From the NCBI RefSeq assembly GCF_003334815.1, contig NZ_QOWO01000007.1: a DNA stretch of 64,000 nucleotides. One strand, written 5' to 3'. A program made the position numbers and the translations under genes. The notes under the pieces were generated by a model. It was given only the letters and a program-made list of their open reading frames with translations. It made no database searches and was not told the DNA's origin. Of the stretch, positions 1 to 54,544 are shown one piece after another (position 1 is the stretch's first letter; every line of letters begins with the position of its first letter). Source of the stretch: Escherichia coli. GTDB lineage: Bacteria > Pseudomonadota > Gammaproteobacteria > Enterobacterales > Enterobacteriaceae.

Positions 1-869
1 TGGAAGAGCTTGCCGCCGACGTACAGCGCAATTTCAGGCAGTGCGGCATCCGGATCTTTAAAGCGGCTGATATCGGGAAAGAACAGCTGCATAAAGAACG
101 ACGCCGCGATAAAGATAACGCCACCGTAGACCGCCGTCAGGAAGATGGCTTTCGGGATCACGCGTGCGGCGTCCGGCGTCTCTTCCGAAAGCGTGGTCAC
201 CGCATCGAAACCGAGGAAGGAGAAACAGACAATCGTCGCCCCGGTAATAATCGGGATCAGGTGCGCGTTCTCGCTGATAAACGGCTGAAGTGACCAGACG
301 GTGCCAACGCCTTCTCCTTTATGCAGTCCCTGAACTACCAGGAAGATAAACACCACCATGATGGAGATTTGCACCAGTACAAACAGGGTATTGAAGTTAG
401 CGACCAGGTTGACGCTCTTCAGATTCGCGGCGGTTAAAATGGCGACGAAGGTTACCACCCACACCCACGGCGGCACTTCCGGGAAGAGGGCGGAGAGATA
501 GATTTTCGCCAACAAGACGTTAATCATCGGCAAAAAGAGATAATCCAGCAGCGATGACCAGCCGACCATAAATCCGACGTGCGGGTTAATCGACTTTTGC
601 GCGTAGGTATAGGCCGAACCGGCCTCCGGAAACTGGCGAACCAGTTTGCCGTAGCTGATAGCGGTAAACAGCACACCCGCCAGCGCCAGCAAATAGGACG
701 CCGGAACGTGACCGTCGCTAATGCCGGAGACAATACCAAAAGTATCAAATACGGTCATCGGCGTGAGATAGGCCAGACCCATCATCACCACCTGCCACAA
801 TTTCAGTGATTTTCGCAGACGGGTTTTGCCGGGTTGCGCAGCAATATTCAGTGGTGAATTAATAGCCAT
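1..869 (-). CDS. puuP: Putrescine importer PuuP (APC-family permease), N-terminal part only; gene runs off the window start
   Basis: Minus-strand frame from ATG at 869-867 translates [35 protein letters not shown]... followed by multi-TM hydrophobic sequence; missing from ORF track because no stop lies inside the window. Confidence 0.85.
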
Positions 870-1171
870 AATTGCTGCCTCCCCTGCGTAATAAGGTTTG
901 CGGTCGTGTCGACCTGAAATCAAACCTGTTTAGCAAGGGAAGCAAAGGGGGCGGAGTCCAGTCAGTAGCAGGAGGGGCGCATACGCAGCCTCCCTCGCCA
1001 TGCGGGGATTTAATCATCGGCATTATCTCATTTCCTCGTCACAGTCTTAATCGTTAACGGAAGCCCGTTGCCGCCCGCGCTCCATAACGCGACATCCGGG
1101 AAATGTCTGGATTACCAGCAAATGTCAGGCCTGGCTCCGCTCAGGCCGATGAAACAACCCCGCAAGGGGTA

Positions 1172-2590
1172 TTACGCGTTTTTCAACATCCACTCAATTT
1201 CTGTTTCTGTGATGAGGCGCTCAAACTGCAACAGCTCATCATTTTTACAGGCGTGATAGACATGGCAGAAGCGTTCGCCTAAATAGCGGCGCAGGTGATC
1301 ATTCTCGATAAACTCACCCAGGGCATCGCTCTGGCGAATCGGAAAGGGTAAGCCTTCCTGTTCCAGCCCGTTGCCTTCGACTTCTTCCTGCAACGGCAGC
1401 TCGTTATCAAGGCCATGCAAAATACCGGCAAAAATCGCTGCCATCACCAGATATGGGTTGGCATCGGCACCCGCCACGCGATATTCCACGCGGTGATTAT
1501 GACGGTCGCCGCACGGAATACGCAGGGCGACGGTGCGGTTGTTATGGCCCCACGACGCCTGCGTCGGCACATACATTCCCGGCTGGAAGCGGCGATACGA
1601 GTTCACGTTTGGTGCCAGCAACGCCATCGACGACGGCATCAGGTCAATCATCCCGGCGAGCATCTTTTTCAGCAGCGGCGAATCTTCGCCTTCCGCGTCA
1701 GAAAGCACGTTCTCGCCACGATTATTTTGCATACTGATATGGATATGCATTCCGCTGCCCGCGTGCTCTTCATACGGCTTCGCCATAAAAGTGGCGTGCA
1801 TCTTATGCTTTTCTGCCATCAGACGCACCAGGCGTTTTAGTGCCAGCGCATCATCGCAGGCTTCCAGCACGTTATCAGTATGGTAAAGGTTGATTTCAAA
1901 CTGACCCGGCGAGGCCTCAGCGACCGCGCCATCTGCCGGAATCAGCTGTAACTGCGCCAGTTCATCAATATCATTGAGCACGTCGGCGAAGTGGTTGAGG
2001 TTATCAACGGAGTAAACCTGGCTTTGTGTATTGCGGTCATCGGTGCCAGGCGCGCAGGGCGGTTGCAGATACCCTTCAGCGTCGCGCTGGCGATCCAGTA
2101 AATAGAACTCCAGCTCTACCGCTACGACCGGGAACAATCCGCGCTGGCGCAGCTGCTGCCACAGGCGGTTAAGAACGTTCCGCGGCTCAACGTCAAAGGG
2201 AGCGCCATCTTCATCGACCATGGTCAGGAGCATCTGACCGATAAACTCTGGATCGGCGGCAGAAGGAGTTAAGGAACCGAGAACAGGAACACAGGTACGA
2301 TCCGGCTCGCCCATTTCCTGACCCAGACCTGCTTCTTCTACTACGTTGCCCAGAATATCCATTGCAAATACCGAGGCCGGGAAATAACACCCTTTCTCGA
2401 GCTTCTTCAGGCTTGAAACAGGAATACGCTTTCCACGGAAGCAACCATTTAAATCGGTAAGTAAAACATCAACATATTGCGTATTCGGGTAGCGCTCCAG
2501 GTAGCGTTTCACTTCCTGCGTAAAGGCGCTACCCCGCCTCTCTTCTGACTGCTGAACAAAGTTCTCTACTTCAACGATATTGGTTTCCAT
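1172..2590 (-). CDS. puuA: Gamma-glutamylputrescine synthetase (glutamine synthetase family), 472 aa
   Basis: ORF 1172..2668 trimmed to the ATG at 2590 (METNIVEVENF...); the 26 upstream codons are ORF-finder read-through. Confidence 0.93.
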   Translation of the reverse strand: METNIVEVENFVQQSEERRGSAFTQEVKRYLERYPNTQYVDVLLTDLNGCFRGKRIPVSSLKKLEKGCYFPASVFAMDILGNVVEEAGLGQEMGEPDRTCVPVLGSLTPSAADPEFIGQMLLTMVDEDGAPFDVEPRNVLNRLWQQLRQRGLFPVVAVELEFYLLDRQRDAEGYLQPPCAPGTDDRNTQSQVYSVDNLNHFADVLNDIDELAQLQLIPADGAVAEASPGQFEINLYHTDNVLEACDDALALKRLVRLMAEKHKMHATFMAKPYEEHAGSGMHIHISMQNNRGENVLSDAEGEDSPLLKKMLAGMIDLMPSSMALLAPNVNSYRRFQPGMYVPTQASWGHNNRTVALRIPCGDRHNHRVEYRVAGADANPYLVMAAIFAGILHGLDNELPLQEEVEGNGLEQEGLPFPIRQSDALGEFIENDHLRRYLGERFCHVYHACKNDELLQFERLITETEIEWMLKNA

Positions 2591-2633
2591 GATTCTTCGC
2601 CTTTGGTTTGTTTTCCGCTCGTTATCAAAGCGT

Positions 2634-2648
2634 AAAATATAATGACCA
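2634..2648. promoter_or_regulatory. Candidate PuuR operator copy (AAAATATAATGACCA) in the puuA/puuD divergent control region
   Basis: 15-mer differs at one position from the copy at 2806-2820; a degenerate third copy (AAAAATATTGAACA) lies at about 2731-2745; matches the PuuR recognition motif as I recall it from the literature. Confidence 0.5.
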
Positions 2649-2801
2649 CCATTCGAATCTGTATGCAAACTAAATGTTTGTCAAATGTTAAATTGAGTTT
2701 GCAAAAATGAAAACCCACTGCTAGATTGAAAAAATATTGAACATAAAGGTCATTTAAAGCGCAGTAATGGCGATAATTTAGTCCACTTTGTGAGATTGAG
2801 C

Positions 2802-3566
2802 ATGGAAAATATAATGAACAATCCGGTTATCGGTGTCGTAATGTGCAGGAACAGGCTTAAGGGTCATGCGACCCAGACTCTGCAAGAAAAGTACCTGAAT
2901 GCCATCATCCATGCAGGCGGCTTGCCTATTGCGCTACCACATGCGCTGGCGGAACCGTCATTACTTGAACAACTTTTGCCGAAACTCGATGGCATTTATC
3001 TTCCTGGTAGTCCCAGCAATGTGCAGCCGCACCTATATGGTGAAAACGGCGATGAGCCTGACGCCGATCCCGGGCGTGATCTTCTGAGCATGGCGATAAT
3101 TAATGCCGCACTCGAAAGGCGCATCCCCATTTTCGCCATCTGCCGGGGTTTACAAGAACTGGTGGTGGCAACCGGTGGTTCGTTGCATCGCAAGCTGTGC
3201 GAACAGCCTGAATTGCTGGAACATCGGGAAGATCCCGAACTGCCGGTGGAACAGCAATATGCACCGTCGCATGAAGTTCAGGTTGAAGAGGGGGGATTAC
3301 TGTCTGCGTTGTTACCTGAATGTAGCAACTTTTGGGTAAACTCTCTACATGGACAAGGGGCGAAGGTCGTTAGCCCACGGTTGCGTGTTGAAGCTCGCTC
3401 GCCGGATGGCTTAGTTGAGGCGGTTAGCGTCATCAATCATCCTTTTGCGCTGGGCGTACAGTGGCACCCGGAATGGAACAGTAGCGAGTACGCGCTTTCG
3501 CGTATATTGTTCGAGGGCTTTATCACCGCTTGTCAGCACCATATCGCTGAAAAACAGCGACTCTGA
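2802..3566 (+). CDS. puuD: Gamma-glutamyl-GABA hydrolase (class I glutamine amidotransferase-like), 254 aa
   Basis: ORF 2790..3566 (GTG-extended) trimmed to ATG 2802 (MENIMNNPVIGVV...). Confidence 0.93.
   Translation: MENIMNNPVIGVVMCRNRLKGHATQTLQEKYLNAIIHAGGLPIALPHALAEPSLLEQLLPKLDGIYLPGSPSNVQPHLYGENGDEPDADPGRDLLSMAIINAALERRIPIFAICRGLQELVVATGGSLHRKLCEQPELLEHREDPELPVEQQYAPSHEVQVEEGGLLSALLPECSNFWVNSLHGQGAKVVSPRLRVEARSPDGLVEAVSVINHPFALGVQWHPEWNSSEYALSRILFEGFITACQHHIAEKQRL
2806..2820. promoter_or_regulatory. Candidate PuuR operator copy (AAAATATAATGAACA) overlapping puuD codons 2-7
   Basis: Exact 15-mer starting 4 nt after the puuD ATG; near-identical copy at 2634-2648. Confidence 0.5.
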
Positions 3567-3592
3567 CCACTACAGTTTAAGGAAATGCAAAT

Positions 3593-4150
3593 ATGAGTGA
3601 TGAGGGACTGGCGCCAGGAAAACGCTTGTCGGAAATCCGCCAGCAGCAGGGGCTTTCACAACGTCGTGCCGCCGAACTCTCCGGGCTGACTCACAGTGCT
3701 ATCAGTACGATAGAACAAGATAAAGTCAGCCCTGCCATCAGTACGCTGCAAAAGCTGCTGAAGGTGTATGGTCTGTCACTCTCGGAATTCTTTTCCGAGC
3801 CGGAAAAACCTGATGAGCCGCAGGTCGTCATTAATCAGGACGACTTAATTGAGATGGGTAGTCAGGGTGTGTCAATGAAGCTGGTTCATAACGGTAACCC
3901 GAATCGCACGCTGGCGATGATCTTTGAAACGTACCAGCCGGGCACAACCACTGGGGAAAGAATTAAGCATCAGGGTGAGGAAATAGGCACTGTACTGGAA
4001 GGTGAAATTGTTCTGACGATTAATGGTCAGGATTACCACCTCGTCGCGGGGCAAAGTTATGCCATTAATACCGGCATCCCGCACAGTTTCAGTAATACGT
4101 CGGCAGGTATTTGCCGAATTATCAGCGCCCATACGCCCACCACGTTTTAA
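3593..4150 (+). CDS. puuR: Putrescine-utilisation repressor PuuR (XRE-type HTH plus cupin domain), 185 aa
   Basis: ORF 3593..4150; N-terminal HTH (LSQRRAAELSGLTHSAISTIEQ), C-terminal cupin-like; AAGGA Shine-Dalgarno at 3579-3583. Confidence 0.93.
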   Translation: MSDEGLAPGKRLSEIRQQQGLSQRRAAELSGLTHSAISTIEQDKVSPAISTLQKLLKVYGLSLSEFFSEPEKPDEPQVVINQDDLIEMGSQGVSMKLVHNGNPNRTLAMIFETYQPGTTTGERIKHQGEEIGTVLEGEIVLTINGQDYHLVAGQSYAINTGIPHSFSNTSAGICRIISAHTPTTF

Positions 4151-46133: not shown

Positions 46134-46142
46134 AACTGCATA

Positions 46143-46235
46143 AAAAAATAGAGTCTGTCGACATCCGCCAGACTCTACAGTACACACAGCAGTGCATCCG
46201 CGTCTTAAATCCGGCATTGTCTCCTCTGCGCCGGT
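46143..46235 (-). ncRNA. mcaS: Small RNA McaS (IsrA)
   Basis: Minus strand reads ACCGGCGCAGAGGAGACAAUGCCGGAUUUAAGACGCGGAUGCACUGCUGUGUGUACUGUAGAGUCUGGCGGAUGUCGACAGACUCUAUUUUUUU: multiple GGA motifs and an intrinsic terminator; abgR-smrA spacer. Confidence 0.8.
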
Positions 46236-49612: not shown

Positions 49613-49734
49613 GCAGGTGAATGCAACGTCAAGCGATGGGCGTTGCGCTCCATATTGTCTTACTTCCTTTTTTGAATTACTGCATAGCACAATTGATTCG
49701 TACGACGCCGACTTTGATGAGTCGGCTTTTTTTT
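49613..49734 (+). ncRNA. fnrS: FNR-activated small RNA FnrS (about 122 nt)
   Basis: GCAGGUGAAUGCAACGUCAAGCGAUGGGCG... ending in the GCCGACU-uugaug-AGUCGGC hairpin plus a U8 run. Confidence 0.85.
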
Positions 49735-54317: not shown

Positions 54318-54544
54318 TGAATAAATCCTTTAGTTATTTTATTTGCCTTTTATCCCCATTTCGGGGAGTGAAAACATCCTAAAGGAGAAGTTCAGTTAGC
54401 CGATAAATATCATTTGTTACGCCTTAAGTAAAACCTTAATCAAATAATTCCTCTGAAATGATAATAAGTCTGGTGAATGTATCGAAGATAATACATACAA
54501 AATAAAAATTATACTTTTAATTTGCTATACGTTATTCTGCGCGG

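Follow-up and report, generated by a model that had tools for sequence, protein, structure and literature searches.

What occupies the long interval between puuA and puuP in Escherichia coli, and how might it set the amount of PuuP, the importer feeding the main putrescine catabolic pathway of this bacterium, relative to PuuA? We examined this question in a 64-kb E. coli window (the whole stretch of DNA that was analysed; position 1 is its first letter and all coordinates refer to it). The window opens inside puuP of a K-12-like genome, and puuA and puuP lie on the minus strand, which their messenger RNA (mRNA) follows. The original prediction had treated the interval as a structured 302-bp spacer carrying small motifs, had overlooked the ORF annotated within it, and had proposed an internal promoter or an RNA processing site that sets the PuuP to PuuA ratio. 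We found that the interval holds a conserved upstream open reading frame (uORF), ymjE, behind a structured leader RNA. We propose, with a probability of roughly 60%, that puuA, ymjE and puuP share a single transcript in which puuP translation is coupled to uORF translation and gated by the leader. The genes concerned are as follows.

puuA: 1172-2590, minus strand; stop codon at 1172-1174
ymjE uORF: 859-1026 (annotated by RefSeq as 859-1023, 54 amino acids), minus strand; overlaps the puuP start by 11 nucleotides (nt)
Shine-Dalgarno (SD) region of the uORF, GAGGAAAUG: 1029-1037, minus strand; CGAGG is invariant
puuP start codon, ATG: 869-867, minus strand
ymjE stop codon, TAA: 861-859, minus strand; 11 nt inside puuP

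The distance from the puuA stop codon (1172-1174) to the puuP ATG (869) is indeed 302 nt, but RefSeq places ymjE within it, which leaves a truly non-coding gap of about 148 nt. The annotation of ymjE and the detection of its protein were already known. Chromosomal YmjE with a sequential peptide affinity (SPA) tag was detected, and the gene was also positive in tetracycline ribosome profiling (VanOrsdel et al., PMC6001520); these authors pointed out that ymjE sits immediately 5' of puuP and suggested a function tied to the neighbouring gene. Further evidence of translation was given by Weaver et al. (bioRxiv 511675). In the searchable literature we found no functional study of ymjE and no description of its conservation as a coupled ORF, of the SD hairpin or of the leader motif described below. 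A full-text search likewise found nothing linking puuP with a riboswitch, uORF, leader peptide or attenuation.

Using PuuA as the query we assembled 80 Enterobacterales loci, in nearly all of which puuP followed puuA; 79 had a recognisable puuP start. Enterobacteriaceae keep both the order of puuA and puuP and a long spacer between them (266-426 nt), and among complete E. coli genomes the spacer was present in 4374, compared with 4375 for the puuA-puuP genes. The set contained 43 distinct spacers covering Escherichia, Pseudocitrobacter, Klebsiella, Raoultella, Enterobacter, Lelliottia, Citrobacter, Cedecea, Buttiauxella, Pluralibacter, Trabulsiella, Franconibacter and some Serratia. These spacers carried an ORF of 55-70 codons that begins at the same aligned ATG behind the CGAGG SD and ends 11 nt into puuP. 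Its frame contained no stop in 43 of 43 spacers, compared with averages of 3.2 and 2.4 stops in the other two frames, and it occurred in ten lengths, every one of them in frame. Across the 79 loci, 71 had a uORF of at least 55 codons (55-78) that ended at +9 to +11 of puuP, with TAA (68 loci), TGA (2) or TAG (1) as the stop codon. All eight loci without a stop at +9 to +11, from Erwinia, Pantoea and short-spacer Serratia, were also without the uORF. The third base of puuP codon 3 (T104) was invariantly T at a synonymous site (ACN and GCN codons), creating the TAA. Together with the published detection of the protein, these results showed that the uORF is translated and that selection acts on its frame, its start and the position of its stop.

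The beginning of the peptide is conserved as well. The first 13 or so codons (M-M-Q-M-F-K-Y-P-H/Q-G-E-G) varied mostly at third positions, where entropy reached 1.7 bits compared with 0-0.9 at positions 1 and 2. Within clades, third-position periodicity extended over codons 1-26 and faded toward the 3' end. From the aligned sequences, these patterns show amino-acid-level selection on the N-terminal peptide. A related start (M-G-Q-F/Y-F-K-P-V-P-V-P-A-G) was found in second puuA-puuP loci of Serratia, Rahnella, Rouxiella, Ewingella and Hafnia. Over their whole length the uORF peptides had a mean column identity of 38% and no invariant column, and an NCBIfam search with four of them matched no family.

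The 3' half of ymjE contains a second element, which had also escaped the original prediction: a hairpin that would sequester the puuP SD.

SD-sequestering hairpin: 872-945, minus strand; in the 3' half of ymjE, its 3' arm holding the puuP SD
Arms of this hairpin: 5' arm 945-930, inner helix 927-921 with 900-894, 3' arm 891-872, minus strand
puuP SD, GGGGAGG: 878-884, minus strand; mean predicted unpaired probability 0.14

The fold of positions 855-960 had a free energy of -38.1 kcal/mol (z = -4.3), and none of 200 shuffles was as stable. In the consensus of 37 aligned sequences two helices were kept, the anti-SD:SD helix and the inner AGGUUUG/CAAACCU helix. In this consensus 95.8% of cells were paired and 6 of 11 pairs were compensatory; none of 500 column shuffles matched it, and slid controls reached 38-63%. 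The anti-SD:SD helix alone was 96.2% paired, with two compensatory pairs (C-G to U-A in 8 sequences and C-G to G-C in 8 sequences). Because both fold energy and covariation support the helix, the modelled structures show the puuP SD paired with uORF codons, that is, sequestered by the uORF sequence.

Upstream of the uORF, the alignment (A1) and RNAalifold revealed a third element.

Conserved structured leader RNA (covariance model R1, about 135 nt): 1021-1155, minus strand
Leader helix P0: 1154-1148 with the uORF start GAUGAUG at about 1027-1021, minus strand; GCAUCAU pairs with AUGAUGC in the consensus
Leader helix P1: 1147-1128, minus strand; GGCCUG-AGCGGAGC-CAGGCC
Leader helix P2: 1119-1106, minus strand; GCUGG-UAAU-CCAGA, consensus GCWGG/CCWGC
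Leader helix P3: 1100-1097 with 1067-1064, minus strand; CCCG/CGGG
Leader helix P4: 1093-1070, minus strand; GUCGC/GCGGC, loop with AUGGAGCGC, consensus GUCGC/GCGRC

The leader had a mean column identity of 80% across genera. Its pairing was kept in 96.9% of cells and included 7 pairs with compensatory changes, a value matched by none of 500 shuffles, and slid controls gave 21-42%. P1, whose consensus is a 4-bp stem around an invariant UGAGCGGAGCC loop, changed on both sides in all four pairs across genera (GC, AU, UA and CG types). The second pair of P2 was U-A in 11 sequences, A-U in 16 and C-G in Pantoea. P3 and P4 were 95-99% paired and mostly invariant, with G-U to A-U changes; like P0, they are supported mainly by conservation. 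GGA was invariant in the P1 and P4 loops. An alternative helix is possible by sequence complementarity: CAUUUCC (1105-1099) could pair with GGAAAUG of the uORF SD as an anti-SD helix. It was 95.8% paired and nearly invariant, with a compensatory change in two cells only, and 7 of 500 shuffles reached the observed value.

Model R1 matched the 64-kb window exactly once (1155-1021, 128.7 bits), and each of the 40 further loci with a score also had a single match, which in every case lay between puuA and the uORF. The Pantoea leader (34.7 bits) lies immediately 5' of puuP in a locus that has no ymjE-type uORF, and the second puuA-puuP loci of Serratia and Rahnella have the uORF and lack the R1 leader; the two modules are therefore separable. 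Among 4227 Rfam families, none matched the spacer in E. coli or in 10 other species (E <= 0.1 in the latter); the best score in the E. coli spacer was for RAGATH-36 (18.4 bits compared with a gathering score of 70, E = 1.1). The leader has the generic arrangement of a riboswitch, a conserved covarying domain upstream of a regulated ORF.

Several other structures considered for the leader were set aside. A long alternative hairpin, CGUUAUGGAGC/GCUUCCGUUAACG, appeared in the minimum free energy (MFE) fold of the single sequence; its T/A variation across genera is uncompensated by eye on A1, and P3/P4 was preferred. A pseudoknot of the P1 or P4 loop GGAGC with GGCUUC amounted to a conserved 4-bp match only, and a 13-codon leader ORF (ATGTCGCGT...) was not conserved, the Klebsiella version stopping after 3 codons. 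The leader is not a repetitive extragenic palindromic (REP) element: a REP-head match with three mismatches at 1088-1100 is at chance level, R1 has a single copy in the 64 kb, and it is orthologous across genera. Nor did we equate P3/P4 with REP111 of EcoCyc, which one paper ties to the puuA/puuP transcription unit. A REP variant (TCGGATGCGCGGCGCATTATCCTGCC...) lies just after the puuP stop in MG1655, outside the window (L085, about 805-755, minus strand). It is probably REP111, which would place that element after puuP and not in the puuA-puuP spacer. Sub-threshold matches to STnc240 (44-52 bits; gathering score 55) were seen 5' of the uORFs in second puuA-puuP loci with long spacers, from Serratia, Rouxiella and Rahnella (L056 4055-4120, L074 4045-4111 and L080 3982-4048).

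The motifs of the original prediction can now be placed on this structure. All were found at their exact positions on the plus strand: the small hairpin ACCCCGCAAGGGGT at 1157-1170, the 8-nt palindrome CAGGCCTG at 1126-1133, the dyad GACAT-N7-ATGTC at 1091-1107 and a third ATGTC at 1122-1126. The palindrome forms the 3' arm of P1, and the ATGTC sites lie on either side of P2 and at the start of P4, with the copy at 1103-1107 abutting the P3/P4 region (1064-1100); palindrome and dyad are thus pieces of P1, P2 and P4. The dyad arm GACAT is specific to Escherichia and reads GCCAT in the other genera of the alignment. Of 2000 dinucleotide-preserving shuffles of the 302-nt spacer, 26% contained a 5-bp stem with a 4-nt loop, 72% an 8-nt palindrome and 26% a 5-N7-5 dyad; a dyad accompanied by a third half-site was the sole rare combination (0.5%). 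On a single sequence the motifs are real and yet unremarkable, and the case beyond chance comes from the comparative evidence.

Directly after puuA lies one more element that could affect the message.

Small GC-rich hairpin, ACCCC-UUGC-GGGGU followed by UGUUUCAU: 1157-1170, minus strand; adjoins the puuA stop codon

This hairpin had been labelled GNRA-type, which holds for the wrong strand, since the mRNA reads a UUGC loop. It was found by a terminator-like scan, which it barely passed (5-bp stem with 4 G-C pairs, 5 T in the next 8 nt), and it also forms in the MFE fold; the scan gave 2 matches compared with 2.5 expected in shuffles. A GC-rich hairpin or REP-like palindrome of variable sequence occupies this position in most genera. 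We found no mapped 3' end for it in the Term-seq and bicyclomycin data of Adams et al. (2021), in which the puu genes are poorly expressed. The hairpin may act as a weak terminator or as a 3'-end-protecting hairpin. Several Enterobacter, Cedecea and Pluralibacter genomes (L023-L027, L029, L032 and L033, at about 3920-4010) carry palindromes resembling REP sequences or bacterial interspersed mosaic elements (BIMEs) inserted between the leader and the puuA stop, and much of the variation in spacer length is due to these insertions. By eye, the alignment of this part contained no evident conserved promoter-like hexamers.

Taken together, these elements suggest the following course of events. The hairpin at 1170-1157 would probably end or stabilise part of the puuA message, lowering read-through. 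The leader (1155-1021), whose structure rests on covariation, may hold the ymjE start codon in P0, and possibly its SD in the alternative helix, and would thereby gate ymjE initiation. The uORF itself is translated, and the N-terminal 13-25 residues of YmjE are kept as a peptide. Ribosomes on ymjE would then melt the hairpin in its 3' half and terminate 11 nt past the puuP AUG, leading to a puuP start by SD unmasking, by termination-reinitiation or by both; we infer this coupling from the invariant position of the uORF stop. If ymjE were untranslated, the puuP SD would remain sequestered, and the C-rich untranslated stretch might, more speculatively, permit Rho-dependent polarity. In every species the most C-rich 78-nt window lies inside the uORF (C/G 1.5-2.7). 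The net result would be that PuuP is made below and separately from PuuA, following whatever controls ymjE initiation or elongation. The idea of a regulatory region within the puuA-puuP unit is thus supported, on cross-genus conservation and covarying RNA structure, and the region probably sets the PuuP to PuuA ratio. The two specific proposals are not supported: the internal promoter is discussed below, and for an RNA processing site we found evidence in neither direction.

Several observations weigh against this proposal. Openness of the SD did not discriminate between the two groups of loci, as those without a uORF were not clearly more open (0.13-0.76), and G-rich SDs are often predicted to be paired. 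Covariation gives little or no support to P0 and to the anti-SD helix of the leader, since both are almost invariant. A C/G ratio of about 2, as in the uORF, ranks only in the top 2-4%, and 2% of windows in this 64 kb reach at least 2.0. YmjE-SPA was among the least abundant small proteins tested (Weaver et al., bioRxiv 511675). Finally, the bicyclomycin-sensitive 3' ends listed by Adams et al. (2021) include no site in ymjE or puuP, the puu genes being poorly expressed in those media.

The input signal is a matter of speculation: it could be polyamines sensed by the nascent peptide or by the leader, CsrA acting on three invariant GGA motifs, or pausing that depends on proline and elongation factor P (EF-P). 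Some features of the peptide give an indirect hint of arrest, namely its conserved N-terminus, the RxxY(D)GP motif found in many genera, and APP or PPP in Escherichia.

Pro-Pro-Pro codons of ymjE: 946-954, minus strand; directly 5' of the anti-SD arm, specific to Escherichia

Given what is generally known of polyproline and EF-P, ribosomes might stall at these codons. A more specific idea is that the region before puuP senses polyamines directly, with the nascent YmjE peptide (candidate sensing sequence M-x-Q-x-F-K-Y-P-H/Q-G-E-G ... R-x-x-Y-G-P) stalling in the presence of putrescine, or the leader RNA binding putrescine or a related amine. We hold this to be unlikely. If true, it would be a new sensor class, with a mechanism like that of SpeFL (ornithine) or of the eukaryotic polyamine-responsive uORFs of AMD1 and AZIN1, and would be the first riboswitch for polyamines, or the first arrest peptide governing polyamine import, in bacteria. 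Such a sensor would also be of use in the engineering of strains for putrescine production, in which puuP and puuA are routinely deleted.

The proposed coupling resembles known systems to different degrees. In SecM-secA, MifM-yidC2 and ErmCL-ermC, a leader ORF or arrest peptide exerts control through unmasking of a downstream SD. The puu locus shares with them a short translated ORF 5' in the same mRNA, a partly conserved peptide, and a downstream SD in a hairpin that overlaps the leader ORF and would be opened by a ribosome within it. Unlike in these systems, the conserved segment of YmjE is N-terminal and away from the hairpin, apart from the Escherichia PPP, and stalling is hypothetical; ymjE also runs through the hairpin and stops inside puuP, which would add termination-reinitiation coupling, and it is preceded by a separate structured leader. 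SpeFL-speF-potE and TnaC-tnaAB rely on metabolite-sensing nascent peptides that block Rho-dependent termination. Similarities to these are an enterobacterial leader ORF before a gene of a polyamine pathway or of transport, a conserved peptide and a C-rich stretch that is a candidate for Rho loading. In contrast to SpeFL and TnaC, for YmjE, which has no sequence similarity to them, no bicyclomycin-sensitive 3' end is listed, its gene overlaps the start of the regulated gene, and Rho dependence and ligand sensing are only hypothetical.

Overlapping genes are translationally coupled by termination-reinitiation in trpE-trpD, trpB-trpA and the coat-lysis pair of phage MS2. As in these pairs, the upstream stop is a few nt from the downstream AUG and the downstream SD is poorly accessible alone. 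Unlike in them, the partner of puuP is a poorly conserved uORF of 55-78 codons and not an enzyme gene, and the ymjE-type stop lies downstream of the AUG, fixed at +9 to +11 in 71 loci. The leader itself is like riboswitches and protein-binding 5' leaders, being a multi-helix RNA of about 135 nt with covarying stems and many invariant unpaired nucleotides, situated just 5' of a transporter gene, with one helix that engages a start codon. It differs from the cis-regulatory leaders of Rfam in matching none of the 4227 families in the 11 species, and in usually preceding a uORF and not the transporter gene directly.

The main alternative from the original prediction, an internal promoter for puuP independent of puuA, would rest on the following sites.

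Sigma-54-like -24/-12 match, AGGCCTGACATTTGCT: 1132-1117, minus strand; from a pattern scan, overlapping the P1 3' arm and the P2 5' arm and containing CAGGCCTG and the third ATGTC
Sigma-70-like match, TTAAGA-N17-(TG)GATAAT: 1022-1050, minus strand; from a promoter scan, with a -10 improved by a single-nucleotide polymorphism (SNP) private to the window at 1024
Predicted AtoC site, GCCATGCGGGGATTTAATCA: 997-1016, plus strand; on ymjE codons 3-9

We consider such a promoter, whether a sigma-54 one at AGGCCTGACATTTGCT (perhaps with NtrC or AtoC) or a sigma-70 one at 1050-1022, improbable, although it is not without support. AGGCCTGACATTTGCT is the only good promoter-like match that overlaps the predicted motifs, and in E. 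coli it has the -24 GG and -12 GC with the exact spacing (GG-N10-GC). These are the bases of puuPp, the sigma-54 promoter of RegulonDB and EcoCyc; puuP is among the RegulonDB sigma-54 promoters used by Pilalis et al. (PMC3118216), and a review repeats the NtrC-sigma-54 assignment for the puu cluster. GCCATGCGGGGATTTAATCA was positive by chromatin immunoprecipitation (ChIP) with over-produced AtoC (PMC3118216), PMC8674398 remarks that PuuP may own a promoter, and a promoter further downstream would be of use behind the terminator-like hairpin that follows puuA. However, E. coli alone keeps the sigma-54 spacing: GG-N10-GC is off by 1-2 nt, or GG is lost, in Klebsiella, Raoultella, Lelliottia, Citrobacter, Cedecea and E. 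albertii, while the surrounding bases stay conserved as helices P1 and P2. Nor is puuPp among the sigma-54 sites found in vivo or in vitro: the main-text tables of the sigma-54 ChIP sequencing (ChIP-seq) study list neither puu nor ymjA, and the RpoN genomic SELEX (gSELEX) paper has no such site either. A sigma-54 promoter was rejected on these grounds, and the RegulonDB assignment for puuP merits re-examination. The AtoC site lies downstream of the sigma-54 match, in conserved ymjE codons where variation is concentrated at third positions, which points to a protein-level rather than a DNA-site constraint. The sigma-70-like match was rejected as well: MG1655 has GATGAT at the -10, so that the match is partly an effect of the private SNP, the -35 is not conserved in other genera, and transcription would begin inside ymjE, removing the conserved uORF start. 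Moreover, puuAP has been treated as, and behaves as, an operon (PMC8674398, PMC11968103), and a puuA deletion behaved as a puuAP deletion, from which the authors inferred an operon (PMC8674398).

Three further explanations were weighed. YmjE could be a free-standing small protein acting in trans, for example on PuuP or putrescine metabolism, with its overlap of puuP a matter of compact packing. The detectable accumulation of the tagged protein, the amino-acid-level selection on its N-terminal 13-25 residues across genera and the neighbour-related function suggested by VanOrsdel et al. (PMC6001520) would fit, and we regard a trans role as unlikely because sequence and length beyond the N-terminus vary widely (55-78 residues, 38% mean column identity) and the hairpin, the SD and the puuP start together determine the C-terminal third, with no Pfam-style or NCBIfam family. 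It would also leave unexplained the constant stop at +9 to +11, kept even with a differing stop codon, and the compensated pairing of the puuP SD with uORF codons. We give a similarly low weight to the leader being mainly a platform for a trans-acting repressor of ymjE and puuP translation, such as CsrA or a small RNA, with no self-contained switch. Its three invariant GGA motifs (P1 loop, P4 loop and uORF SD), about 50 nt apart, and the rise of puuA RNA and ribosome footprints in a csrA mutant speak for it; on the other hand, puuA has no recorded CsrA peak in cross-linking immunoprecipitation (CLIP), and as the GGA of the SD is expected anyway, two more in some 70 conserved positions count for little. 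That the motifs are chance features of a neutral, functionless spacer deserves next to no credence. Each single motif is common in shuffles, and the fold energy of the non-coding part alone (z = -0.93) is no better than that of shuffles, but this reading is already refuted by the comparative data: the 80% mean leader identity across genera, covariation in two separate structures, a frame open across ten lengths, and a spacer present in 4374 of the 4375 E. coli genomes with puuA-puuP.

In the literature found, regulation of puu has so far been described as transcriptional, through PuuR, ArcA, FNR, sigma-S and CRP. The comparative data point to a second, post-transcriptional layer before puuP, kept across Enterobacterales. 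They suggest a concrete, testable role for ymjE, which belongs to the many small ORFs of E. coli that have no known function, and add a structured RNA motif unmatched in Rfam in the best-studied bacterium.

We also noted several variants around the uORF. MG1655 and all other genera have a second in-frame ATG one codon before the annotated start (1026-1024); it is ATA in this window. The change, A on the minus strand at 1024 compared with G in MG1655, is the sole difference from MG1655 across window positions 1-3671. It turns the first ATG of the tandem ATGATG into ATA, weakens P0 and makes the extended -10-like TGaGATAAT. None of the 4374 complete E. coli genomes with the region has it (best identity 99.7%). 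A mini-ORF, ATG-AGA-TGA, overlaps the ymjE start out of frame (1032-1024, minus strand) and reads ATG-AAA-TGA or ATG-TGA elsewhere; it may merely reflect the conserved GGAAAUG. In E. coli CFSAN061770 (L084 2789-3486), insertion sequence IS1 interrupts ymjE in its 3' part, inside the SD-sequestering hairpin, and splits the uORF from puuP, by its position a natural disruption of the presumed uORF-puuP coupling. Hafnia paralvei has about 2 kb between puuA and puuP (L038 3920-5946), yet its 72-codon uORF ends at +9 to +11 with TAG. In a Pantoea sp. (L042 3898-4080), a 60-codon ORF starts out of frame inside the puuA 3' end and stops at a TAATG overlapping the puuP start, which may be chance.

Outside the interval, puuD and puuR come after puuA on the plus strand. 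About 1051 of 5426 complete E. coli genomes had no match to puuA, the spacer or puuP, indicating that the locus is missing in about one-fifth of strains, and six E. coli matches to the locus sit on records labelled plasmid. Adams et al. (2021) mapped a bicyclomycin-sensitive 3' end antisense to puuA at MG1655 1360663 (plus strand), which is at about position 2345 of the window. Elsewhere in the window, three small RNAs scored above the Rfam gathering threshold.

McaS: 46140-46235, minus strand
FnrS: 49613-49730, plus strand
MicC: 54542-54662, plus strand

Their spacing, set against the MG1655 coordinates, presumably means that the source strain lacks an IS5 copy (about 1.2 kb) and the Rac prophage (about 23 kb).

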